64,000 nt of DNA from an uncultured Bacillota bacterium (lineage in GTDB: Bacteria; Bacillota_I; Bacilli_A; RFN20; CAG-826). The position numbers and the translations under genes are program-made. The notes under the pieces were generated by a model. It saw nothing but the letters and a program-made list of their open reading frames with translations, was not told where the DNA came from and made no database searches. Shown here piece by piece: positions 22,537 through 34,233 of this stretch; the stretch's first letter is position 1, and every line of letters begins with the position of its first letter. Where the stretch lies: assembly GCA_949287245.1 (NCBI GenBank), contig CASEFL010000001.1, positions 138,973-202,972 of the forward strand, read 5' to 3'.

Positions 22537-24363
22537 TTAGTTATTTGATCCGTCTGTGAAGTCGGCATCAAAAGGAGCGTCCCCATTTGCTCCTCCCGCA
22601 CTAGAAGAATCATTATTTCCAGCGCTTGAAGCACCTTGAGCCTGAGAAGCCATTCTTGCCGCATCTTCTAAGCGACCAACAATTTCTCTTAACTTATCCA
22701 TATCTTCACTTTGTAAGGCACCTTGAGCTTCATCGCGCAAAGTAGTGAGTTGAGTTTTTTGTTCTTCGCTTAACTTATCGCCTTGCTCAACAAGAGCTTG
22801 GTTAATGTCATCAATATACGTTTGGGCTTTATTTTTCACCTCAATATCGTCTTTTCTCTTTTGGTCAGCAGCCTTGTTTTCCTCCGCTTCTTTCACCATA
22901 CGTTCAATGTCTTCTTGCGATAAACCATTGGAGCCGCTGATGGTAATATCTTGGGCTTTTTGCGTATCAAGATCTTTCGCGGATACTTTCACAATACCAT
23001 TAACGTCAATTGAGAAAGTGACTTCGATTCGTGGTTGACCCCGTCTTGCTGGTTTAATTCCCGTTAAAGAGAAATGACCAAGTAATTTATTGTCATGAGC
23101 CATTGGTCTTTCCCCTTGATAAACCATAATATCTACAGCAGGTTGATTATCTTGTGCCGTTGAGAAAATCTGACTCTTTGTTGTAGGAATCGTTGTATTA
23201 CGTGGAATTAAGACGGTCATGACTCCTCCTAAGGTTTCAATCCCTAAAGAAAGCGGAGTTACGTCAAGTAAAACAACATCTTTTACATCACCTGCAATAA
23301 TAGCGCCTTGGATGGCAGCACCCATAGATACTGCTTCATCAGGGTTCACCGACATATTAAGGTTATGTCCGGTCACGCTTTTTACCATTTCTTGGACAGC
23401 TGGCATACGAATCGAACCACCAATCATTAAGACATCCCCTAAATCCGAATAAGATAATCCAGCATCTTGCATGGCCTTTTCCATTGGGGCTTTGCAGCGT
23501 TCTAATAAATGACGAGTTAAATCTTGGAATTTTGCTCTTGTTAAGGTTCCTTCGTAGTTAATTGGACCATTTGAGCTCATTCCAATGAAGGGTAAACTAA
23601 TCGTTGTGGTTAAACTGCTAGAAAGTTCAATTTTTGCTTTTTCAGCGGCATCAATAAAACGTTGTTCGGCCATTTTGTCAGTTAAATCAAGTCCAAATTG
23701 TGTCTTGATTTCACTACGGATCCAATTGGCAATGACAATATCCCAGTCGTCTCCACCTAAATGAGTATCTCCAGAAGTAGAAAGAACTTGGAAAGTTCCA
23801 TCGCCAATATCAAGAATGGAAACATCTAAGGTGCCTCCACCTAAGTCAAAGACAAGGACGCGTTCGCTTTTATTAGAATCCAAACCATAAGCAAGGCAAC
23901 TTGCCGTTGGCTCGTTAATAATTCTGACTACTTCAAGTCCCGCAATCGTTCCAGCATCTTTTGTTGCTTGCCGTTGAGCATCATTAAAGTAGGCAGGAAC
24001 TGTAATAACGGCTTTTTTAACTGGTTGTCCAATAGACTTTTCTGCATAGCCTTTCATATAAGAGAGAACCTTTGCGGAAATCTCTTGAGGAGTGTAATCC
24101 TTATTTAAACAAGAAATGTGGAATTTTTCTGCGGTCCCCATTTTTCTTTTGGCACTACGAACGGTATCAGGATTTGTAATCATTTGCCGTTTGGCAGAGT
24201 TACCAACAATTTCTTCTCCATTGCCTTTAAAAGCAACAATAGAGGGCGTAGTCATTGTTCCTTCCGGATTTGGAATTACTTTGACTTTTCCGTCAGGTTG
24301 CATGTACGAAATAACTGAATTTGTCGTTCCTAAATCAATACCAACAATAATTTCTTTTGCCAT
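22537..24363 (-). CDS. dnaK: Chaperone DnaK (Hsp70)
   Basis: 608-aa ORF with '[10 protein letters not shown]', 'DLGGGTFD' and other Hsp70 signatures. Confidence 0.97.
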
Positions 24364-24392
24364 ATTCTTTTTCTCCTTTTTTATTTCAATTT

Positions 24393-24927
24393 TTATGCTT
24401 CTATTTTTTGCTCTTCTTTCTTCTTTTGAGCACTAACGGTTACTCTGGCCGCCCGAATAAGACGGTCATGCAGTAAGTAACCTTTGCTTTTGCATTCAAT
24501 TACCTTTCCTGGCTCAATATCGCTTTCTAAAGTCTCAATCGCCTCCATCGTCTTGGGATCAAAATCATCTCCTGTTTTTGGTAAAATATAAGAGATTCCT
24601 TCGGAGGCTAAAGCCTCTTCCAGTTGCCGATAAATGAATTGAAATCCTTGGCGATAATTTCTTGCTTCATCGCCAACTGTTTCTCCTTGTAAAGCTATAT
24701 ATAGACAATCAAGAGAAGGAATCAGTTTTTCTAAGAAACCTGCTGCGCGGTAACGGACGGCTTCGCGATGATCTTCCTCTAGAGATTTTCGTAAATTCTG
24801 CATATCCGCATAACACATATAGTAGAGATTCTTCCACTTTTCGATTTCTTCTTTTGCTTTTACAAGTTCTTCTTCTAAGGAGGGTGTTTTACTCTCCTTT
24901 TGTTCTTCTACTTCTTCTGGACGTTCT
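24393..24927 (-). CDS. grpE: Nucleotide exchange factor GrpE
   Basis: GrpE coiled-coil and beta-domain. The start is set at ATG 24925-24927 (MKKKERPEE), which has a strong GGAAGGAGGGGGA ribosome-binding site. It overlaps the hrcA 3' end by 39 nt. Confidence 0.9.
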
Positions 24928-25968
24928 TTCTTCTTCATCGTCCCCCTCCTTCCCTTTTTCGCTTTCATGGAAATAATCATCAAGTGCGCTTGCAAAATAT
25001 TTAAGGGTGCTAACAGCTTTGTTATAGTCCATTCTTGTCGGACCAACCAAAGTTAAGGCAGCATCATTATTTCCAGGAAGCGTAACTTCGGCAGAAATAA
25101 TGGCAACATCGGGATTCCCGTCCCCTTTCTTAGCAATTCTTACACTCACACCATCCGAACTATCTCCGGCTTCTAATGCTTTTTTTAATCGTTCGGGATC
25201 ATCAAGCAAAGCTAGAATTTCACGAACCTTTTGTGCGTCATTTTGGAACTCTGGTTGACTGAGTAATTCTTCTTTACCATAAGAACTCATCCGTTCGGTA
25301 GCAAAACGAGCAAAGGCTCCTAAAATCGCATCATAAATAATTTCCTGTCCAACCATATATTCATGGAGAACTGGTCGTAAGGCTTCCATTTTCGAACAAA
25401 TTTCCGAAATAGGAGTACCTACTAGACGTTCATTTAATAGCTTTACTCCACGAACAACATCATCAACTTTCAAGGTCTTATCGATTAAAAAAGTTTTATT
25501 TTCAACATAGCCTTGAGAAGTAACAAATATTGCCGTGGCACTATGTCCATTTAATGGAACGATATTTAAGGAAGCAAGACGTTCTTCGCTTACCTTTTTT
25601 CCTAAGACAACGGAAGCAAGATTTGTCATACTTGAAAGAATTTGACAAGACTCCGTAAGCACTTCTTCCACCGATTTTGTCTTATTGGAAAGAAGGACTT
25701 GTAGAGCGTGTTTTGCTCCACCATCAACCTCTCCATTTCGCAAGTTATCGATATAATATTGATAACCTAGAGAACTTGGCGTTCTTCCAGCAGAGGAAAA
25801 ATCTTTCTCCAAAAGACCATCTTTTTCTAGAGCACTCATCTCATTGCGGATTGTTGCCGTAGAATAGTCAAGTCCATACTCTTCTTGAAGAGTTTTGCTC
25901 GACACCGGCTTTGCCGTTTTAATAAAGTACTCGACGATGAGCTTTAAGATTTCATCGCGCCTTGTCAT
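24889..25968 (-). CDS. hrcA: Heat-inducible transcription repressor HrcA
   Basis: 359-aa ORF with an N-terminal wHTH and HrcA C-domain. It is the first gene of the hrcA-grpE-dnaK-dnaJ operon. Confidence 0.9.
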   Translation of the reverse strand: MTRRDEILKLIVEYFIKTAKPVSSKTLQEEYGLDYSTATIRNEMSALEKDGLLEKDFSSAGRTPSSLGYQYYIDNLRNGEVDGGAKHALQVLLSNKTKSVEEVLTESCQILSSMTNLASVVLGKKVSEERLASLNIVPLNGHSATAIFVTSQGYVENKTFLIDKTLKVDDVVRGVKLLNERLVGTPISEICSKMEALRPVLHEYMVGQEIIYDAILGAFARFATERMSSYGKEELLSQPEFQNDAQKVREILALLDDPERLKKALEAGDSSDGVSVRIAKKGDGNPDVAIISAEVTLPGNNDAALTLVGPTRMDYNKAVSTLKYFASALDDYFHESEKGKEGDDEEERTSRRSRRTKGE

Positions 25969-25978
25969 GCTCCCTCCT

Positions 25979-26005
25979 TTGGCAATCTATATTCCTGACT
26001 GCCAA
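25979..26005 (-). promoter_or_regulatory. CIRCE-like HrcA operator variant (TTGGCAGTC-N9-GATTGCCAA) between the -10 and the hrcA ribosome-binding site
   Basis: A 9-N9-9 inverted repeat with 8 of 9 arm complementarity. It has the same architecture and position as canonical CIRCE (TTAGCACTC-N9-GAGTGCTAA), matching it at 7 of 9 positions per arm. Confidence 0.55.
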
Positions 26006-26010
26006 AGAGC

Positions 26011-26038
26011 ATTATAAAGGGCAAATTAGCAGAGTCAA
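26011..26038 (-). promoter_or_regulatory. Putative sigmaA promoter of the hrcA operon (-35 TTGACT, 16-nt spacer, -10 TATAAT)
   Basis: Minus-sense TTGACT(26038-26033)-16 nt-TATAAT(26016-26011). A second degenerate CIRCE-like half-repeat (TTGGCAGTT...CTCTGCTAA, about 26033-26059) overlaps the -35. Confidence 0.55.
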
Positions 26039-26071
26039 CATTGAACTGCCAAAAAGTTCGGTATCTTTCTT

Positions 26072-27187
26072 TTAGTTATCAAAAAAAGGAGAACAGAATA
26101 AAGTTCTTAAAATTCGGTCAAGCAAGTAAATGCCTTCTCTTGTTGCGTGAACTCGACCATATTCGACAACAAGGAGTTTTTTCGTTTCTAATTTCCTTAC
26201 TTCTTCTAAAAAAACAGAAAGAAAAGAGAAAGAAAAACGTTTTTCAAATTCTTCTAAAGCAAAACCTTTTTCTAATCGCAAAGTGGTAAGGAAAAAAGTT
26301 TCTATCGCATCTTGTATTGTGGGAGAGGGTTCGTATTCACGCCCTACTCCATTTAAGTAGGAGGAAAAAGATCGAGTATTTTTATAATGTATGCCATCCA
26401 CATATCCTGCCGCACCAAGACCGATTCCTATATAGGGCTGATCTTCCCAGTACACAAGATTGTGTTTGCACTCAAATGATGGCAAAGCGAAGGAACTTAC
26501 TTCATAACGGATAAATCCATGACTTTCTAATAAGGATAGAATTAGGTCATACTCCAAGCGCGCTTCTTCTTCCTCGGCTTCTTTTATATTTTTATAAGCA
26601 AAAGTTGTGCCCTCTTCAATAATCAAAGAATAAGCGGATATTTGCTGTGGTTTTAAAGAAAGAAAATCATGTAAATCTTTTTCTACATCTAAAGGTGTTT
26701 CTTTTGGCAAAGCATACATTAAATCAAGAGAAATATTTGAAAATCCAACATTTTGAGCGATTTTTACAGCACTTTTTGCGTCAATAAAGCGATGCTTTCG
26801 TCCTAACAATTTTAGATATTTATCTTGTGAAGATTGAATACCAAAAGAGAGACGATTTACCCCATACTTTTTGGCGATAAATGCTTTTTCTTCAGAAAAA
26901 CTTTCAGGATTAATTTCAAGTGACCATTCCCCATCCTTTTTTAAATAAGGCGCAAAAAAAGACAAAAGGGATTCCCATTCCGTTAAAGATAAAGAACTAG
27001 GAGTTCCTCCCCCAATATAGATTGTCTTAAAAGAAGCAAAATTAGGGGAAAAAGAGAGAAATTCCTTCTTAAGAGCAGAAAAATATGGTTCAACCCAATG
27101 TTTTTGATAAATTAATTTTGGAAAATCACAATAGGCACAAATGGCGCGGCAAAAAGGGATATGAATGTATAAAGAGGTCGGAATCAT
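26072..27187 (-). CDS. hemW: Radical SAM heme chaperone HemW (HemN-like coproporphyrinogen oxidase family)
   Basis: 'YIHIPFCRAICAYCDF' radical-SAM motif and HemN C-domain. Its position between lepA and hrcA matches Bacillus. Confidence 0.85.
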   Translation of the reverse strand: MIPTSLYIHIPFCRAICAYCDFPKLIYQKHWVEPYFSALKKEFLSFSPNFASFKTIYIGGGTPSSLSLTEWESLLSFFAPYLKKDGEWSLEINPESFSEEKAFIAKKYGVNRLSFGIQSSQDKYLKLLGRKHRFIDAKSAVKIAQNVGFSNISLDLMYALPKETPLDVEKDLHDFLSLKPQQISAYSLIIEEGTTFAYKNIKEAEEEEARLEYDLILSLLESHGFIRYEVSSFALPSFECKHNLVYWEDQPYIGIGLGAAGYVDGIHYKNTRSFSSYLNGVGREYEPSPTIQDAIETFFLTTLRLEKGFALEEFEKRFSFSFLSVFLEEVRKLETKKLLVVEYGRVHATREGIYLLDRILRTLFCSPFFDN

Positions 27188-27597
27188 CCTTTTTTCTCTT
27201 CTTTTTTATTCTCATCATTTTTAATCGCTTCCTCTTCTTCAGGATGAGAAAGGCGATATTGTTCCATGGCTTCGGCGGTTTTTTCATCTTCCACGGAAGA
27301 TAAGGTTCGTTCTAAGGAGTCGTCATGATAAGAATCCTGTGATTCTTCTTTTTTTCTTTCCTTTTCTAAGGTGTCCGCTTCTTTTTCTAATTCTTCATCT
27401 AAATCTTCAACTAAGCGATCTACTTCTTCTTTTGCGATTTCTTCAGGTGTTTTTACTTTTTCATCGCTTTTAAAGAAAGGGACATATTTCCGCAAAAGAA
27501 ACACTAAGAGGGCAACTAAGCCAAAAACAACTAAGATTAAAACAAGGATAATTCCAGGATTACTCCAAAAATCATCAAAAATAACAGGATTGATCAT
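27184..27597 (-). CDS. Small membrane-anchored protein with an acidic coiled tail (hypothetical)
   Basis: 137-aa ORF with one N-terminal TM helix followed by an E/K/D-rich region. It overlaps the hemW start by 4 nt and abuts the stop of the upstream Fic-like gene. Confidence 0.5.
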   Translation of the reverse strand: MINPVIFDDFWSNPGIILVLILVVFGLVALLVFLLRKYVPFFKSDEKVKTPEEIAKEEVDRLVEDLDEELEKEADTLEKERKKEESQDSYHDDSLERTLSSVEDEKTAEAMEQYRLSHPEEEEAIKNDENKKEEKKG

Positions 27598-27599
27598 AT

Positions 27600-29090
27600 T
27601 TATTCTTGTCCTTTCATCACAGGGGTATATACAAATTTGTTTTTAATTTGACTTTTCTTATAGTAGCCACGTGCCGCAAGCTTATCCATAGAAGTCCGTG
27701 CCGTTTCATAAGAACAACGGGCAAAGCGTTTAAACTGTTGAATCGTATAATATCTTCCTTCAATTAGATGCGAAGCAAGGAAACTTGCTTGTTTTCGTGA
27801 CAAAGAAGGGTCTGTTTCCATTAAATATTGTGTGTATTCCCTTGTTTCTTTCTCGGTTAAGCGCTCCGTTTCAAAAGGCATAAGATTTTGCCCACTAGGG
27901 AAACGAGGAGGAGAGGGAGGAACTTTTCTTTTTTCTTCCATAGGCTGAATTGAAGAATTAGGAATTGTTTCCTCTTCTTTAACTTCCTCAGCAAAAATCG
28001 GCTTAGGTTCATCAAGAGAAATATCGCTCTCCTCTTCCAAAATGGAATAGTTTTCCTTTTCGGGAGAAGATACATTTTCTTCCCTTTGCTCCTCTTCATA
28101 AACCTCTTTTTCCGCATCTTTTTGAGCTTGCAAGAAATCGTTCCAGCAGCGGCGCATCCGACTCATGAAAGTATCAAACAAATAGGTCAAATCCCCTTTT
28201 CGTCGTACTTCTAAAATTAAAAAACGATAATCAGTGCGACGTAATTCTGTTAAAAAGGTTTCAATAGGAAGTAAATACGCCCCAGGGCCAAACTCGGAAG
28301 ACAAAATCTTTTTGGCAACCATTAAAGCAACAACTTCATTATGACTGTCAAAAGGTTTAAACCAATCGATAAAAATTAATGCGGCAAGAGCCTTAACAAT
28401 TAACGATACTTGGTCATTTCCTTGAATTGCATTAAAAAGTTGCGACATGGAATCAGCAATTCTTTCTGCTGGGCAATATCCATAATCGGGCGACTGTTGG
28501 AAACTCCAACGGAGTGCCTCTTTATCAAAATCAGAACTTCGATAAAAAGAAATAAGTTCTTGTGTCCCCTCAATCGCCTCTAATACTTGAGCCATAAAAT
28601 CTTCATTTGGCAAATCGCTTTCACCTTCGCGGAAAAGTTTTTCTAAAAGATCGTGATAGCGCAATAAAGGATCGTGAAATTCTTCATGATTACGATACGT
28701 TCCGTTTAAAACCGCTTTAATCATTAACGGACTCATTTCGCATTCTTCAAAAATATTAATCCCCGCCAAACAAGATTCATAAATCGCACGACGAACGTAT
28801 TCCCCGCGCCTTCCATTTAATGATTCTAATTGTTTCGCAAAATTAGAAATAAGCGATTCAAAAGATTTCAGCCGCTCAAGAATCGTGCTCGTGCCAGTGA
28901 AATAAACTGGTTCGCGGTTTAATGTTTTAAGAGGCGATAACAAAACTTCATGTTCTTTTCGATACTCTAAAACAAGTTTCCAAATCGCCGAAGCACCAAT
29001 CGTCCCAACTTCACGAGAGAATAAAGTTTCCGTTAAATAGTTATCATCAGTGCAACGATAAACAATGGGTTCATACTTATCATATTTCAT
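27600..29090 (-). CDS. Fic-fold protein with degenerate catalytic motif, an acidic/Pro-rich disordered linker and a C-terminal winged-helix domain (hypothetical)
   Basis: The core region '...PAERIADSMSQLFNAI...VSLIVKALAALIFIDWFKPFDSHNEVVALMVAKKIL' matches the Fic helix pattern around HPFx[DE]GNGR. Here that motif reads KPFDSHNEV, so His, Gly-Gly and Arg are lost. The C-terminal ~60 aa look like a wHTH. Confidence 0.45.
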   Translation of the reverse strand: MKYDKYEPIVYRCTDDNYLTETLFSREVGTIGASAIWKLVLEYRKEHEVLLSPLKTLNREPVYFTGTSTILERLKSFESLISNFAKQLESLNGRRGEYVRRAIYESCLAGINIFEECEMSPLMIKAVLNGTYRNHEEFHDPLLRYHDLLEKLFREGESDLPNEDFMAQVLEAIEGTQELISFYRSSDFDKEALRWSFQQSPDYGYCPAERIADSMSQLFNAIQGNDQVSLIVKALAALIFIDWFKPFDSHNEVVALMVAKKILSSEFGPGAYLLPIETFLTELRRTDYRFLILEVRRKGDLTYLFDTFMSRMRRCWNDFLQAQKDAEKEVYEEEQREENVSSPEKENYSILEEESDISLDEPKPIFAEEVKEEETIPNSSIQPMEEKRKVPPSPPRFPSGQNLMPFETERLTEKETREYTQYLMETDPSLSRKQASFLASHLIEGRYYTIQQFKRFARCSYETARTSMDKLAARGYYKKSQIKNKFVYTPVMKGQE

Positions 29091-29191
29091 GATACATGCA
29101 TTATATAAGCAAACTCTAAATAAACACTAAAAAACTACTAAAAAGTTTTAAAAATTAATCATGATCTATAATATTTGTTTCCTCCTTAATA

Positions 29192-29225
29192 TGAAAAAAA
29201 GCACTGATAAACAGTGCTTTTATTA
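29192..29225 (-). terminator. Rho-independent (bidirectional-looking) terminator after the membrane-protein gene
   Basis: Hairpin AGCACTG-ATAAA-CAGTGCT (29200-29218) flanked by an A-run on one side and a T-run on the other. Confidence 0.55.
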
Positions 29226-29234
29226 TCAAGTCAA

Positions 29235-29978
29235 TTAATGTTTTAAGCCAATATCGTAAAGTGCAGAAGCACGATGATCAATTACATAGGGAGCAATCGC
29301 ACAGAAAGCTGCCCCAAGCACATAGAATATGACCATGAAAACAATTTGAATCGTATAAATTGAACCATAAACTAAATCAGGAAGAAGCGGTAACCCAGGA
29401 GAAATTGTTGTTGATGTTGAACCAACAATTAAATAGCCAAAACTCATCATGCTCACCGCCATGGAGAGTAAACCAAATCCAACTGGTAAGGCAGAAAGTT
29501 TCTTTTTCGAAACATAGGCAACAACACCCATGATAAGCGCAACAGCAAAAAGTGCGACAGAAATAATTTGTAAATAGAAACTTGCACCCAACATTTGGGT
29601 ATTACTTAAAAGATAAGTCAATTCACGAACCGACTCATTTCCAGTTGGAGAAACATAAATATAACTACCAGAGGCGGACCATGTATTGGCGAGTAAATCC
29701 AAGAAAGAAAGCATAATTGGGGTGTCTGTGGCCATATTGGCGTCCCAATTAAAGTTTGGATCTGGTTTTACTAATGTCGAAGTAACCGTATCCCATTTCC
29801 CAATGGATATAGATAAAAATCCTGGGGTAGCAACAACAGTAAAATACAATGCCGCAAAAACAATCGCAGCAATACCAACAATAGCCCAAATAATTAAAGT
29901 AATGCGCTCACTGCGCTTAAAGTTAGCTAATTCTTGTTCATCGACAGGCTTGCTAACTTTCATGGTTTCTCTTTCCAT
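29235..29978 (-). CDS. Polytopic membrane protein (hypothetical, ~6 TM)
   Basis: The start is set at ATG 29976-29978 (MERETMKVSKP), which has an AGTGAGGT ribosome-binding site. The longer ORF would overlap the lepA 3' end. Confidence 0.5.
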   Translation of the reverse strand: MERETMKVSKPVDEQELANFKRSERITLIIWAIVGIAAIVFAALYFTVVATPGFLSISIGKWDTVTSTLVKPDPNFNWDANMATDTPIMLSFLDLLANTWSASGSYIYVSPTGNESVRELTYLLSNTQMLGASFYLQIISVALFAVALIMGVVAYVSKKKLSALPVGFGLLSMAVSMMSFGYLIVGSTSTTISPGLPLLPDLVYGSIYTIQIVFMVIFYVLGAAFCAIAPYVIDHRASALYDIGLKH

Positions 29979-30054
29979 GTAGGGTACCTCACTTTTCCGT
30001 TGCTTATTATCGCGCGAAAACAACTTCTTGCAACCGCTTACATAAATTTTTTTC

Positions 30055-31869
30055 TTAATCTTCGCTTTCGTCAAGAGAAAGAACGGCCATGAATGCCTCT
30101 TGAGGAACCTCAACTGAGCCAATTTCTTTCATCCGTTTTTTTCCTTCTCTTTGTTTTTCTAATAATTTCTTTTTTCTTGATATATCTCCCCCGTAACATT
30201 TTGCCAAAACATCTTTTCTTACGCTTTTTATATCGGCACGAGCTATCACTTTTCCGCCAATTGCAGCCTGTACAGGTACCTCAAATAATTGGCGAGGAAT
30301 AATGTCTTTTAATTTCCGTACAATGAGATTACCTCGACGAAAAGCATCTGGTCGGAAAACAATTGAACTTAAAGCATCAATACTTTTCCCATTTAAAAGA
30401 ATATCCATTTTGGCCAAATCACTTTCTTGATATCCAAAAAGTTCATAATCAAGCGAAGCATAACCTTTGCTCATTGATTTTAAGCGGTCGAAAAAGTTAT
30501 AAATAATTTCACTTAGAGGTAATAAATATTTAACAACTTGTCTCGTATCATCAAAATAAATCAAATCTTGATAGATGCCACGCCGACTTTGACAAAGTTC
30601 CATTACACTGCCTACATATTCTCCTGGTGTCATAATGGAGGCAGATACATAAGGTTCAAGAATCCGTTTAATTTTTGTTATCGGAGGCATTGCGCAAGGA
30701 TTATCAAAAAAGACAATAGTTCCATCGGTTAATTCACATTGATAACGAACGCTAGGAGCAGTCAGAATAAGTTCAAGATTGTATTCTCTTTCTAAACGCT
30801 CTTGGATAACATCCATGTGCAAAAGACCTAAAAAACCAGCGCGGAAACCAAACCCTAACGCTTCTGAACTTTCCGGTTCAAAAAGAAGCGAAGAATCATT
30901 AAGAGAAAGTTTTTCTAAAGCATCTTTTAAATCAGGGTATTTGCGTGAATCAACGGGATATAACCCGCAATAAACCATTGGATTAATTTTTCGATAACCA
31001 GGAAGTGGGGTAAGCGCTGGCTCTTTTACCAAAGTAATGGTATCTCCAGGAGTTACGTCTTTAATATCTTTAATGGTAGCTGCTAAATAGCCGACTTCGC
31101 CTGCCTCAAGAGACTCAACAGGAATTTCTTTTGGTGTGCGAATTCCAAGTTCACTAACAACATACCGCTTTCCTGTAGCCATTAAAAGGATTTCGTCCCC
31201 TATTTTTACTGCGCCATTTTTTACGCGAATCAGAGCAACAACTCCACGATAAGAATCATAATGGCTATCAAAAATGAGTGCTTGTAAAGCAGCTTTTGGA
31301 TCACCATCAGGCGGAGGAATTAATTCCACAGCTTTTTCTAACATTTCCTCGATACCGAGACCAGTTTTTGCCGAAACTAAACAACAGTCATTTGTCGATA
31401 AGCCGATGCGCTCTGATATCTCTCGTTTTGCTCGTTGAATATCGGCGGAAGGCAAATCAACCTTATTAATGACAGGAATCACCATTAAATCATTATCAAT
31501 AGCCAAATACACATTCGCTAAAGTTTGTGCTTCTACTCCTTGAGTAGCATCTACAACAAGCAAAGCGCCTTCACAAGCGGCTAAGGAACGAGAAACTTCA
31601 TAGGAAAAGTCAACGTGCCCCGGTGTATCAATAAGGTTAATTAAATATTCTTCACCCTTTTGGTTCTTATAAGAAAGAGAAACAGCATTTAATTTGATGG
31701 TTATCCCCCGTTCTCTTTCTAAATCCATTTCATCGAGCATTTGTGCACGTAGTTGTCTTTTCTCTACTGCTCCAGTTTTCTCTAATATTCGATCACATAG
31801 AGTGCTCTTTCCATGATCAATATGAGCAATCACTGAGAAATTACGTATATGTTTTCTATCAATAGCCAT
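30055..31869 (-). CDS. lepA: Elongation factor 4 (LepA)
   Basis: 604-aa ORF with '[15 protein letters not shown]' and 'DTPGHVDF'. The C-terminal LepA-specific domain is present. Confidence 0.97.
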
Positions 31870-31890
31870 CTTATCTATTATATTCTTCTC

Positions 31891-34233
31891 TTAAGAAAAT
31901 TTTGCATAAAAGGAAGTAACAATCGCTCTTACTTGATTAGCAGAGGTAGCAATCTGATAGCAAGGATGCATACGTGATAATAAAGAACGATAATCGCGAC
32001 TCAAATAGCGATCATCAATTAATAAAACTACCCCCTTATCACTTTCACTACGGATGAGTCTACCTAAGGCTTGCATGACCTTATTCATTCCAGGGTAACG
32101 ATATGCGTAATTGAATCCTTCTTCCCGAGTTTGTTGAAAATGTTCCCTTAATATTTCTCTTTCAAAACTTACCATCGGTAAACCAATTCCAACAATAGCA
32201 ACACCAATAAGACGATCACCAGATAAATCTATCCCTTCAGAAAGCGAACCGCCAATTACCGCAATACCAATTTGTGTCTTATCCTTTTCCTCTGTAAAAT
32301 TCGACAAAAAATCACTTTTTTCTTTATCGGTCATACCTCTTTTTTGAATATAAACATCCGCATCAGCAAAAGATAAAAAAGGAACAATAGATTCTAAATA
32401 AGAAAAAGAAGGCATAAAAAGCAAATAGTTTCCTTTCTTTCCTTGAACAAAAGCTTGGAGATAATCGGCAACATCGCGTTTTGTTTTCTCACGATCTTTA
32501 TATCGAGTAGATACTTTGGAAGCCACAATAATTTTGCAATTTTCTTCGGGAAATGGAGAAGGTAATAGAAGATGCGCCTTCTCTTCACCTGCGATGCTAG
32601 ACATATAATATTCAATCGGAGACAAAGTACCCGAAAATAATGTTGCGCCACGTAAACGCTTTAAATCTTCTTGCAGCATGAAAGAAGCATCTGGACAAAA
32701 TAAACGCAGAGCAAAGCCATTCTCATTTTGGGTAAAGAGAACATCGCTATCACCATATTCTTCATAAATTTTAAAAAACCTATGTGTTTCCCTGGTGAAA
32801 TCTCGAATTTCTTGGCCTAAGGGAGGGACGTTATCTTCTTGCATATAAGCTTGACCCGCTTGTTCAATACGATTTAACGCTTTTTTTAGTGTCTTTCTCT
32901 CTCCTTGAAAATAATGGGTCAAATTCTCACTATTTTTTTCTTCTTTTAGCACTTTTTTCAGCGCTCGAAAAGCGAGATAAAAACTATGCAGTTCCGCCAC
33001 TTTTTTTGAAATTTTAATAACTTTATTTAGTGCTTCTTCTTCAATTGTGGCGCTATAACACTCTCTTGCGCGGTCAATTAAATTATGGGCTTCATCAATA
33101 AGAACATAATGCTTTTTGGCCTCTTCATCTAAGGTGAAAAATCTTTCTAAATAGGCAAAGGGATCAATAAGATAATTATAATCACAAATAATAACGTCAC
33201 TAAAACTAGAAAGGTCTAGACTCAATTCAAAGGGACAAGTTTCATCCTCTTTCGCAAGTTCCTTAATTTTTTGCTCAGAATAATGAAGATTTTTGTCAAA
33301 ATTCTCTTTCAGTATTTTTCTTAGTTTCTCGTAATAATTTTTTGCAAACGGACAACTATCAGGATTACAACTAGAGCCGGGACTGGCGCACATTTTTTCA
33401 CGAGCCAATAATCGCGAAGTGCGCAAAATTGCCCCCCTTTCCTTTAACAATCGAATTGTCTCTTCTGCAGCAATTGCTCCTGAGGTTTTTGCCGTTAAAT
33501 AAAAAATCTTGCCCTCAGACCAATCTCCTTGAGCCCGCAAAGACGGATAAAGAGTACTTACTGTTTTTCCGATTCCGGTGGGTGCTTCAACAAAAAGAAT
33601 TTCGCCTTTTTTAGCTGCACCATAAACATATTTACACATTTCACGTTGTCCTCTTCGAAAGAAAGGATAGGGAAAAGATAAAGCGTGAAGTGATTCGTTT
33701 CTTTCTTTAACATGGTGAAAAATTGATTTCATGAAAATTAAATATTCATGAATTAATTGTCTTACTTCGCTTTCTAATTGTTCTTTTGTTTCTAAAAATT
33801 CTACAAACCACCGATGATGAAAATCTTTTTGATCCAAATATTGAAGACGAATGAGGGCCCGCTCTTTCTTCTCTTGCATAAGATAAAGAAGCGCGTAACA
33901 ACGTGCCTGTCCTAAATGCCATTCTTTCTGTGATTCATGAAAGGCGTATAAATCGCCTACTGTGCTTTTGATCTCTTCAATAATTGGTATTGATCCCTTA
34001 TCAATAATGCCGTCTGCTCTTCCCTCTAAAGTAACAAGATAGTCATCAACGGAAAAACTGCCTTTAAGAAAAACTTCTGAGCAATAAGAAGTAGATTGCG
34101 AACCTTGAAATAGCCGATGAAATTCTGATCCTTTTTTCATCGTTTCTAAGTTATAAATGCGAGAATCGATGTCTCCATTACGTAATAAAAAATCAACTAA
34201 AGCATGGATAGATAAAGTAATCTCTTTTTCCAT
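31891..34233 (-). CDS. DinG/XPD-family Fe-S DNA helicase with an N-terminal PD-(D/E)XK (Cas4/RecB-like) nuclease domain
   Basis: The N-terminal ~180 aa carry D...EIK...Q..Y motifs ('GRADGII', 'IIEEIKST', 'GQARCYALL'). The helicase part carries 'FPYPFFRRGQREM', Walker A 'APTGIGKT', DEAH 'LIDEAHNL' and a four-Cys cluster 'CASPGSSCNPDSCPF'. Confidence 0.8.
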   Translation of the reverse strand: MEKEITLSIHALVDFLLRNGDIDSRIYNLETMKKGSEFHRLFQGSQSTSYCSEVFLKGSFSVDDYLVTLEGRADGIIDKGSIPIIEEIKSTVGDLYAFHESQKEWHLGQARCYALLYLMQEKKERALIRLQYLDQKDFHHRWFVEFLETKEQLESEVRQLIHEYLIFMKSIFHHVKERNESLHALSFPYPFFRRGQREMCKYVYGAAKKGEILFVEAPTGIGKTVSTLYPSLRAQGDWSEGKIFYLTAKTSGAIAAEETIRLLKERGAILRTSRLLAREKMCASPGSSCNPDSCPFAKNYYEKLRKILKENFDKNLHYSEQKIKELAKEDETCPFELSLDLSSFSDVIICDYNYLIDPFAYLERFFTLDEEAKKHYVLIDEAHNLIDRARECYSATIEEEALNKVIKISKKVAELHSFYLAFRALKKVLKEEKNSENLTHYFQGERKTLKKALNRIEQAGQAYMQEDNVPPLGQEIRDFTRETHRFFKIYEEYGDSDVLFTQNENGFALRLFCPDASFMLQEDLKRLRGATLFSGTLSPIEYYMSSIAGEEKAHLLLPSPFPEENCKIIVASKVSTRYKDREKTKRDVADYLQAFVQGKKGNYLLFMPSFSYLESIVPFLSFADADVYIQKRGMTDKEKSDFLSNFTEEKDKTQIGIAVIGGSLSEGIDLSGDRLIGVAIVGIGLPMVSFEREILREHFQQTREEGFNYAYRYPGMNKVMQALGRLIRSESDKGVVLLIDDRYLSRDYRSLLSRMHPCYQIATSANQVRAIVTSFYAKFS

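Follow-up and report, generated by a model that had tools for sequence, protein, structure and literature searches.

FicL, a Fic-fold protein whose family has abandoned catalysis in all sampled members, keeps its fold, its DNA-binding tail, a partner gene (tm137) and a cis element under selection at one chromosomal site, and the reading that we favour, tentatively, is that of a catalytically dead SoFic/CccR-type protein with a C-terminal winged helix (wHTH) autoregulating the ficL-tm137-hemW operon. To our knowledge, nearly all work on Fic proteins has treated them as enzymes (AMPylases, toxins, effectors). FicL would be a clear natural example of a regulator that arose from a pseudoenzyme, and it comes with a ready-made candidate operator sequence.

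The ficL-tm137-hemW module and its neighbourhood

In the window (the whole 64-kb stretch of DNA that was analysed) the gene order on the minus strand is lepA (30055-31869), a 247-aa membrane gene with its terminator, ficL, tm137, hemW and hrcA. The membrane gene, mem247 (29235..29978), encodes a four-helix protein and owns the hairpin plus T-run terminator at 29197-29221; ficL (27600..29090) encodes the 496-aa degenerate Fic-fold protein, tm137 (27184..27597) a 137-aa bitopic membrane protein, and hemW (26072..27187) a member of the radical-SAM heme chaperone family (TIGR00539, E=1.9e-80). The tm137 start lies 2 nt past the ficL stop, and the tm137 TGA overlaps the hemW ATG (ATGA). All features described in an earlier reading of this DNA, made from the sequence only, were found in place on the minus strand. 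The start of mem247 at 29978 is that of the public gene call; a longer TTG-started ORF from 30122 overlaps lepA.

Synteny was sampled by fetching 80 related species-level loci with ~13 kb per relative, which makes 81 loci with the window. The genes ficL, tm137 and hemW stand together in all 80 fetched species genomes, at FicL identities of 30-50% (down to about 30%), and hemW is directly 3' of tm137 in every fetched locus whose contig reaches that far. In most of the 80 related loci the ficL stop and the tm137 start overlap or are a few nt apart, and the overlap of tm137 stop and hemW start, from which co-transcription had been proposed in the window, recurs as a coupling in most of them as well. 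A search for a terminator inside the ficL-tm137-hemW unit found none. The described features are much more than chance would give: at least 397 full-length homologues of FicL exist, the family forms 290 clusters at 50% identity (E<=1e-30), and relatives occur in 429 species-level genomes. The hosts are uncultured small-genome Bacilli, abundant in gut and rumen, with one complete chromosome of 1.06 Mb.

The third gene has a different history. Among the fetched loci, mem247 has homologues in L001 and L002 (51-53% identity) and, in part, in L008, but in no others, and a profile search for a family match gave none; the gene is a later arrival, specific to its clade, which separates lepA from the FicL promoter and is outside the conserved module. 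The sequence-only reading had taken all three genes as an insertion between lepA and hemW: the genes are present, but they are not one unit, since ficL and tm137 are found in all 80 loci and mem247 only in the closest relatives. As two of the three genes are lineage-wide, without an annotated housekeeping function, that claim is weakened, not refuted. The GC content of ficL, tm137 and mem247 (0.33-0.39) is like that of the flanks, so that a compositional sign of recent acquisition is absent, and ficL and tm137, followed by hemW, are an old, vertically kept module and not a recent insertion.

The module is kept where lepA is absent upstream (L004, L026, L031, L041, L043) and where hrcA is displaced (L016, L041, L043), and hrcA(-grpE-dnaK) has its own promoter and CIRCE-like operator. 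The module is tied to hemW and not to lepA or the heat-shock genes, and the formerly suggested connection with the heat-shock regulon is not supported, the proximity to dnaK being due to the ancestral lepA-hemW-hrcA order.

The partner protein tm137 begins with a short N-terminus ahead of a single transmembrane helix; basic residues follow the helix, and then a conserved acidic cytoplasmic tail with the consensus KxFKxxEKPKSDKEIAEEELxRLL. At least 238 homologues are present, all named hypothetical or mis-named. The profile TIGR04561 / PF27867 ('Membra_charge') scored 18.5 bits against tm137, under the curated cut-off of 30, and matched at E<=0.01 in only 5 of 37 orthologues; the precomputed Pfam match is marked weak.

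Domain structure and degenerate active site of FicL

FicL, whose length varies across the family from 430 to 590 aa, consists of an N-terminal domain of three helices and a beta-hairpin (residues 8-65, by AlphaFold topology), a Fic core (67-341), an acidic disordered linker (342-410) and a basic winged helix (411-496). Neither the N-terminal extra domain nor the conserved upstream DNA element had been mentioned in the sequence-only reading. The core has the all-alpha Fido fold, and the Fic assignment made there is borne out by alignment to solved Fic proteins and by Foldseek, in which the best structural matches over Fic core and winged helix are SoFic and CbFic2, with alignments of ~430 SoFic columns. 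Against Pfam PF02661 FicL reaches 19.2 bits, under the gathering cut-off of 24, and a precomputed PF02661 match exists on some homologues; the DUF4172 N-terminal dimerisation region gave no Pfam match in FicL at E<=1.

The active-site loop KPFDSHNEV (residues 245-253; 28332..28358, minus strand) replaces the HPFx[D/E]GN[G/K]R motif and aligns with HPFaDGNGR of 4rgl, 8cil and 7cb8. In 120 homologues residue 245 is K (73), M (13), A (9), S (9), R (7) or Q (5) and never His, and both glycines and the arginine of the motif are lost, with P246 kept in 120, F247 in 118 and N251 in 116 of them. When 121 further representatives are included, the canonical motif is found in 0/241 homologues and a first-position His in 2/241; the degeneracy noticed in the window is therefore family-wide. 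At the place of the class II inhibitory motif (S/T)xxxE(G/N) FicL aligns the segment NIFEE, where the inhibitory Glu115 is kept in 86/120 homologues, the S/T position is A, N or S and the last position is K, N or G. In the best model the ancestor of FicL is a class II Fic AMP-transferase (SoFic/CccR/CbFic2 type, with a Fic core and a C-terminal winged helix), and with the catalytic His and the nucleotide-binding GNGR loop lost it presumably no longer modifies proteins.

The linker (net charge -9; E 15, P 11 and S 8 of 69 residues) is predicted to be disordered and varies from 51 to 195 aa across the family. The winged helix (27603..27860, minus strand), with recognition helix YETARTSMDKL and wing KNKFVYTP, is matched by the PADLOC SoFic model at residues 416-492 (E=3e-5) and weakly by Pfam Penicillinase_R at residues 457-494, and its AlphaFold topology over residues 413-490 is H-H-H-H-beta-beta. 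Composition, PADLOC model and AlphaFold topology together support the linker and the C-terminal winged helix proposed earlier. The latter has a net charge of +7, a length fixed across homologues and a family median pI of 9.5; its mean majority fraction is 0.78 vs 0.46 for the Fic core, and YETARTSM does not vary among the homologues (120/120), nor among the 80 fetched loci and the window. Judged by this conservation, the basic winged helix is the part of FicL under strongest selection.

Promoter and conserved upstream DNA element

A -10 box TATAAT (29100..29105, minus strand) is located 9 nt upstream of the FicL ATG at 29090, and neither a Shine-Dalgarno sequence nor an alternative in-frame start for FicL was found in the window. 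The distance from the end of an exact TATAAT to the orthologous ATG is 6-11 nt in 33/81 loci, and other clades have a leader of 13-26 nt, typically with a Shine-Dalgarno sequence. The leaderless start suggested previously is in keeping with this spacing, and it is plausible that the FicL mRNA is leaderless or near-leaderless in this genome.

Next to this promoter a conserved cis element was found, which is a new result of the present analysis. Located at 29124..29142 (minus strand), the element (A/T)TTAGTAGTTTTTTAGTG is a direct repeat TTAGTAG-N4-TTAGTKR with an 11-bp period and a candidate FicL operator; the 18-bp direct-repeat form (A)TTAGTAGTTTTTTRGTTG abuts the FicL promoter. The 64-kb window contains a single real match, the exact 16-mer at 29126-29141. 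At <=3 mismatches the element stands at the same place in 72/81 loci, compared with a chance rate of about 0.004 per locus derived from shuffles, while 9/81 loci are without a good match; no further copy at <=2 mismatches was found elsewhere in the 892 kb of loci, a search that covered the 64-kb window and, for each relative, about 13 kb. In the alignment the element forms 18 informative columns between unconserved flanks, and where other genes part FicL from lepA it travels with FicL.

The 3' end of the element in the window is about 19 nt upstream of TATAAT, i.e. where the -35 would sit, and no good -35 hexamer is present at the FicL promoter there. Across loci the upstream distance of the element from TATAAT is 20-23 or 29-32 nt, the two classes being about one helical turn apart. 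The association between motif variants and winged-helix residues is weak and confounded by phylogeny. From its position and conservation the element is probably FicL's own operator; it could instead serve another regulator or be a promoter UP-like element.

Relatives of FicL provide models for such binding. The Fic-HTH protein CccR uses its C-terminal HTH to repress its own promoter at sites near -35/-10, and as a dimer it recognises inverted repeats with a spacing of 26 bp (PMC9755527), and CbFic2 of Coxiella burnetii (8cil) binds DNA through its C-terminal winged helix (PMC10628234). With a direct repeat of 11-bp period in place of inverted repeats, the binding geometry of FicL must differ from that of CccR, which moreover is active in AMPylation (His192), is secreted as a T6SS toxin and is without a long linker. 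In FicL the catalytic His and GNGR are missing, and it differs further by its extra N-terminal domain, acidic linker, direct-repeat element, fixed housekeeping neighbourhood and membrane partner. From its title and date, we take PDB entry 7xux to be CccR of Yersinia pseudotuberculosis. In SoFic (Shewanella oneidensis, 3eqx/3zcn) and CbFic2 the motif is intact and both proteins are active as (de)AMPylases; their N-terminus is a DUF4172 region, for which FicL gave no match.

Proposed role and competing explanations

Starting from what is observed directly (fold, motif loss, conservation of domains and DNA element, gene order and gene coupling), we infer FicL as the binder of the element, and the sign of regulation and any tm137 contact belong to the same conjectural part. 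The winged helix would bind TTAGTAG-N4-TTAGTKR at or just upstream of the -35 position of FicL's own promoter and in this way autoregulate the three-gene operon, while the dead Fic core, in which the target-binding flap is retained, and the acidic linker would serve as an input module that binds a partner protein or peptide and sets the amount of FicL free for DNA. The most obvious partner candidate would be the co-translated tm137, through its conserved acidic cytoplasmic tail, and a second one, in many orthologues, the sliding clamp. The sequence-only reading had also considered that the Fic-like protein could be a regulator, and it is this possibility that we favour, with reserve. In genomes of this small size it is unlikely that a 500-aa protein would be conserved without a function.

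The same parts may be assembled otherwise, and an unlikely alternative is that FicL is a DNA- and replisome-associated scaffold and not a dedicated autoregulator, tethered to the sliding clamp DnaN by a linker motif, with a winged helix of little or different DNA specificity and a core holding a partner such as a topoisomerase subunit (on which bacterial FicT toxins usually act), the element then being another factor's or a promoter feature. The motif Q[LMI][STDN][LIFM][FLI] occurs at a fixed offset in the linker of 49/120 homologues (QLSLF in 15, QMSLL in 7, and others) against a mean of 0.18 matches in shuffled linkers, and further homologues have QLSLPL or QLTLDSFL. It corresponds to the clamp-binding consensus QL[S/D]LF, and the same penta- and hexapeptides of PolC (QLSLF) and Hda (QLSLPL) recur in the disordered segment of many FicL orthologues (PMC12309361); CbFic2 binds DNA without clear sequence specificity (PMC10628234). 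However, the motif is clade-restricted: the FicL of the window has the non-canonical NYSIL at the aligned place, and among the 121 more distant representatives only 10 carry a clamp-like motif anywhere in the protein, so that putative clamp binding cannot be the core function of the family, and the invariant, gene-tied DNA element is left unexplained. It is improbable that FicL acts as a protein-binding pseudoenzyme on the products of its neighbours, localised by the membrane partner and holding DnaK or HemW unmodified in the manner of FICD, an enzyme that has the Hsp70 BiP as binding partner and substrate. FICD/HYPE is active, has TPR domains and lacks a winged helix, unlike FicL, in which the basic winged helix and not the Fic core is most conserved; in addition, hrcA-grpE-dnaK, with a promoter and operator of its own, is parted from the module in some loci.

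The near-invariant P246, F247 and N251, the acidic residue that often follows F247 and the inhibitory-glutamate position kept in 86/120 might speak for a new active site formed by the nearly invariant Lys, Pro, Phe and Asn, as variant-motif Fic enzymes are established (Doc is a kinase and AnkX a phosphocholine transferase). Catalysis through such non-canonical residues is nevertheless very improbable, since the general-base His is absent in 239/241 homologues, bulky or acidic residues have taken the place of both anion-hole glycines and the arginine, and there is free variation at position 245 (K/M/A/S/R/Q). The idea that a Fic toxin-antitoxin or SoFic-type anti-phage defence module landed between lepA and hemW and left a remnant there, which takes up the toxin-derived module considered earlier, agrees with the PADLOC SoFic match of the C-terminal domain and with the fact that Fic-HTH proteins are often toxins (PMC9755527), but we regard it as extremely improbable: the place beside hemW is fixed across 80 species without compositional anomaly, mobile-element genes and an antitoxin-like neighbour are absent, the neighbours are without a PADLOC match, the catalytic site is dead, and the winged helix is strongly selected, unlike in a decaying remnant.

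The autoregulation that we favour may also be extended, in a speculative and distinctly unlikely form, to ficL-tm137 as a lineage-wide housekeeping switch, in which the former AMPylase would be a ligand- or partner-sensing transcription factor checked by the tm137 acidic tail and in many clades also by the sliding clamp, coupling membrane or replication status to hemW expression, as a counterpart of MMSYN1_0805. The conserved link with hemW may help to explain what HemW does in organisms without heme synthesis. A Fic-plus-HTH protein from a reduced-genome relative of the Bacilli, MMSYN1_0805 (JCVI-syn3.0 / Mycoplasma mycoides) was described in 2026 as an inactivated AMPylase with the catalytic His changed to Ser; it is annotated as 'transcription factor', and its apparent essentiality was ascribed to polar effects (PMC13621843, PMC6755753). 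Likened to it by description and shared superfamily, FicL is also a presumably inactive Fic protein with an HTH, and gives context to this protein of the JCVI minimal cell; MMSYN1_0805 has 391 aa and lies upstream of rpoB, whereas FicL has 430-590 aa with a linker and lies upstream of hemW.

Gene order between lepA and hrcA

All genes of the region are located on the minus strand, where a 780 aa DinG/XPD-like helicase (31891-34233; DEAD_2, HBB, and Helicase_C_2) is followed by lepA (30055-31869), a 247 aa four-helix membrane protein (mem247; 29235-29978) with a terminator (hairpin and T-run; 29197-29221, same strand) at its 3' side, the 496 aa Fic-fold/winged-helix protein (FicL; 27600-29090), the 137 aa single-pass membrane protein (tm137; 27184-27597), hemW (26072-27187; TIGR00539, E=1.9e-80), and then hrcA, grpE, and dnaK. 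The hemW start is overlapped by the tm137 stop (ATGA), the GC content of the genes does not differ from that of the flanks, and the ORFs are the same as those in the public annotation of the contig. The layout described in the sequence-only reading is confirmed, down to the TATAAT ahead of the FicL start. The tiny ORF MINF following AAGGAGG in the mem247-FicL spacer was judged to be a chance occurrence, because the AAGGAGG spacing is 18 nt. The N-terminal approximately 180 aa of the helicase have no Pfam match and by eye carry a PD-(D/E)xK-like signature (GRADGI...IEEIKS), and synteny between the helicase gene and lepA is kept in almost every related locus.

In Bacillus subtilis lepA is followed by hemN/hemW and then by hrcA, and relative to this order the proposed insertion stands. 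When the spacing was compared in related genomes a recent event was not upheld: FicL relatives were found in 429 genomes (one genome per species), and the 80 best loci repeat the arrangement helicase-lepA-FicL-tm137-hemW-hrcA-grpE-dnaK at only 30–50% FicL identity, against 68–90% for LepA, so it is old. These loci (designated with L numbers) come from uncultured Bacilli of gut, rumen, and sediment, whose records bear the labels Bacilli, Bacillales, Erysipelotrichaceae, Mollicutes, or Candidatus Enteromonas and include one complete chromosome of 1.06 Mb, OX437086.1, which carries L008. The metagenome-assembled records of L012, L036, L045, L053, L056, L062, and L070 bear titles that name Escherichia coli, Prevotella, Bacteroides uniformis, Roseburia hominis, Hallerella, Sodaliphilus, or Alistipes; as they carry this Bacilli locus, they are evidently mislabelled bins, and therefore organism names for the FicL family in public records are unreliable.

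The three genes also do not behave as one insert, since among the 80 loci mem247 is confined to L001, L002, and partly L008, while FicL and tm137 stay with hemW. Other extra DNA occupies the lepA-FicL gap in L032 and L073, and in five loci (L004, L026, L031, L041, and L043) the upstream lepA match is absent with FicL-tm137-hemW intact. At the FicL-tm137 junction most loci have a 4-nt overlap of stop and start or a gap of a few nt, and the hemW start overlaps or directly adjoins the tm137 stop, in agreement with the coupling of tm137 to hemW that had been proposed. Attachment of this module as a unit to the adjoining heat-shock regulon was not sustained, because hrcA is served by a strong promoter of its own (TTGACT-16-TATAAT; 26011-26038, minus strand) and, between promoter and start, by its own HrcA operator, the variant CIRCE TTGGCAGTC-N9-GATTGCCAA (25979-26005, minus strand), and is separated from hemW by about 3 kb in L016, L041, and L043. 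Since the genes never part among the loci compared, their stops and starts overlap or lie close together, and hrcA has its own promoter and operator, ficL-tm137-hemW is probably a conserved operon rather than part of a three-gene insert beside the heat-shock regulon. The variant CIRCE is common to the window, L001, and L002; its changes fall at mirrored positions of both arms, a hint of co-evolution with HrcA. Canonical CIRCE (TTAGCACTC-N9-GAGTGCTAA) is matched within 3 mismatches in 57 of 81 related loci.

Fic fold and active site of FicL

By Pfam alone the Fic match to FicL is sub-threshold (19.2 bits versus a cut-off of 24) and the winged-helix match is weak. The profile of 120 homologues matches the solved Fic proteins 4rgl (E=2e-12) and CbFic2 (8cil; 1.4e-11) as well as 7cb8, FICD, and SoFic, with kPFdekNeev aligned to HPFaDGNGR, and the AlphaFold2 model built from the same alignment (pLDDT 89.3, pTM 0.85) consists of a three-helix domain with a β-hairpin (residues 8-65; 28896-29069, minus strand), a helical core (residues 67-341), a disordered stretch (residues about 346-405), and a helix-rich domain with a terminal β-hairpin (residues 413-490). 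These matches and the model confirm the Fic fold that had been noticed from the sequence; FicL belongs to the Fic/Fido fold with the architecture of the SoFic/CccR/CbFic2 subclass, known Fic proteins with a C-terminal winged helix.

In Fic enzymes the motif His is the general base, and GNGR binds phosphates. In FicL homologues the first motif position is K, M, A, S, R, or Q and never His (0/120); Pro, Phe, and Asn hardly vary, while other residues stand in place of both Gly and the Arg. A search across 1.84 billion cluster representatives supplied 121 further ones, of which none has the canonical motif and only 2 have His at the first position. Thus the degenerate motif described earlier was borne out as a family trait: judged by these alignments, the catalytic base and the phosphate-binding loop are lost family-wide, which is not a defect of the window copy alone. 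Because both His and GNGR are absent, canonical AMP transfer by FicL is excluded on sequence grounds, and, failing both the catalytic motif and the Pfam threshold, the protein is to be filed as a Fic-fold pseudoenzyme, not a Fic enzyme.

The strongest conservation is found in the C-terminal domain, which has a fixed length of 84–86 aa, a net charge of +7, and 78% majority identity versus 46% in the Fic core (acidic, net -11) and 29% in the likewise acidic linker (51–195 residues among homologues). Its predicted recognition helix, YETARTSM, is invariant in 120 of 120 homologues and in all 80 related loci and the window. The N-terminal domain (residues 8-65) has winged-helix-like topology with near-invariant T14, D15, Y18, W37, Y43, and R44, and no match among the Pfam families searched; it occupies the place of the DUF4172 region in SoFic-type proteins and may serve as an additional domain for DNA binding or for dimerisation.

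Direct-repeat element and start of FicL

Upstream of nearly every orthologous FicL start (70 nt printed per locus) there is an 18-bp DNA element, TTAGTAGTTTTTTAGT or close variants; it was overlooked in the sequence-only reading and is a candidate FicL operator, with TTAGTAGTTTTTTAGTG as the proposed operator sequence. Allowing up to 3 mismatches, 72 of the 81 loci have it, in every case on the coding strand and upstream of the FicL start; where the match is clean it ends 22–56 nt ahead of the ATG. Shuffles predict a 3-mismatch match in a 200-nt AT-rich spacer in about 0.4% of loci. The exact 16-mer is single in the 64 kb searched (29126-29141, minus strand), the only other window match, at 3 mismatches, being within chance expectation, and no copies with up to 2 mismatches were found elsewhere in 892 kb of loci. 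When aligned at the motif, the loci display 18 columns of 0.6–2.5 bits each, values somewhat inflated by the selection step, with flanks near 0.

The element is a direct repeat of 11-bp period, TTAGTAG-TTTT-TTAGTTR; in one clade (L004, L026, L031, and L041) it is perfect with one extra T (TTAGTAG-TTTTT-TTAGTAG), and L043 carries another variant. TATAAT lies downstream at either 20–23 nt, where the element 3' end overlaps the -35, or 29–32 nt, where the element sits one helical turn further upstream. A loose association of motif variants with winged-helix residues (TTGGTTG with TIQD) was set aside as confounded by phylogeny.

The element is not a lepA 3' feature, because it travels with FicL where other genes separate FicL from lepA. 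Nor is it a known RNA, since the Rfam scan of 24000-32000 gave just a sub-threshold miRNA match. The known-operator check did not find canonical CIRCE at up to 3 mismatches, and the element is not known to resemble the CtsR, DnaA-box, WalR, or PhoP consensus sequences. A metagenome-contig scan with TTAGTAGTTTTYTRGTT gave at least 120 matches; those listed are mostly chance matches in unrelated AT-rich environmental DNA, only 3 being beside FicL, each in the expected place, and therefore they are uninformative on regulon size.

The TATAAT of FicL (29105-29100, minus strand) lies 9 nt before the ATG, and neither a Shine-Dalgarno sequence nor an alternative in-frame start was found for this gene. 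In 33 of 81 loci the ATG of the FicL orthologue follows the end of an exact TATAAT by 6–11 nt and lacks a functionally spaced Shine-Dalgarno sequence, while about 20 loci of other clades have a leader of 13–26 nt, usually with a Shine-Dalgarno sequence of GGAGG or GAGG type. This pattern supports the leaderless start suggested previously for the window genome, an arrangement conserved in several clades and not a family constant.

Candidate role of FicL and tm137

The most economical reading, held tentatively and at a little less than an even chance, is autoregulation by FicL, because the basic winged helix is near-invariant, the element at its own promoter is near-invariant, and the element is absent elsewhere in the sequence available. 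These three observations fit the DNA-binding precedent of CbFic2, whose C-terminal HTH binds DNA (PMC10628234), and of CccR, which represses its own promoter via sites near -35/-10 that it binds by means of its C-terminal domain (PMC9755527). The CccR sites are widely spaced inverted repeats, whereas the element consists of direct repeats. The direct-repeat geometry suggests that FicL may bind in tandem, as OmpR/PhoB-type winged helices do. The dead Fic core might, speculatively, serve as the input domain.

The linkers of 49 of 120 homologues contain Q[LMI][STDN][LIFM][FLI] (QLSLF in 15, QMSLL in 7, and others including QLSFL), and those of other homologues QLSLPL or QLTLDSFL, corresponding to the sliding-clamp-binding consensus QL[S/D]LF and the PolC (QLSLF) and Hda (QLSLPL) motifs (PMC12309361). 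The motif is always placed 17–32 residues beyond the alignment column that holds residue 335 of the window protein (alignment A2), while shuffled linkers gave a mean of 0.18 matches (maximum 2). It supports a DNA-associated role for FicL. Clamp binding cannot be the core function as far as motif distribution indicates, since the motif is clade-specific: the window protein has NYSIL at the aligned place (residues ~347-351; 28038-28052, minus strand), and a clamp-like motif anywhere in the protein occurs in just 10 of the 121 more distant representatives.

An inactive Fic-HTH protein of JCVI-syn3.0, MMSYN1_0805 (391 aa, His to Ser, upstream of rpoB), was described in a 2026 analysis as having an unknown role, with its apparent essentiality ascribed to polar effects (PMC13621843, PMC6755753); compared by description only, FicL differs from it in length, linker, and gene context. 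No paper on the FicL family, on the operator-like element, or on the membrane partner was found in the literature searches, and in databases the proteins are named "Fic family protein" or "hypothetical". They form a large, coherent family with a candidate operator that is concrete and testable.

The tm137 orthologues have one transmembrane helix followed by basic residues, from which, by the positive-inside rule, the tail is predicted to be cytoplasmic; it contains the conserved segment KxFKxxEKPKSDKEIAEEELxRLL and might, speculatively, be a ligand of the Fic core or a DNA mimic recognised by the basic winged helix. The profile search collected at least 238 proteins, each annotated as hypothetical or under a wrong name. 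The match of tm137 to TIGR04561/PF27867 "Membra_charge" is below threshold, and AuxB, FtsL, ZipA, and Membra_charge were rejected as families for tm137 and mem247 because the NCBIfam and Pfam matches are compositional only. In longer tm137 proteins (alignment A3) there is a second copy of the acidic helix motif [ST]xxE[IV]AxEE[LV]xR and a conserved C-terminal AMxxYxxxHPEE, while short orthologues of 72–95 aa carry the first acidic-helix copy only.
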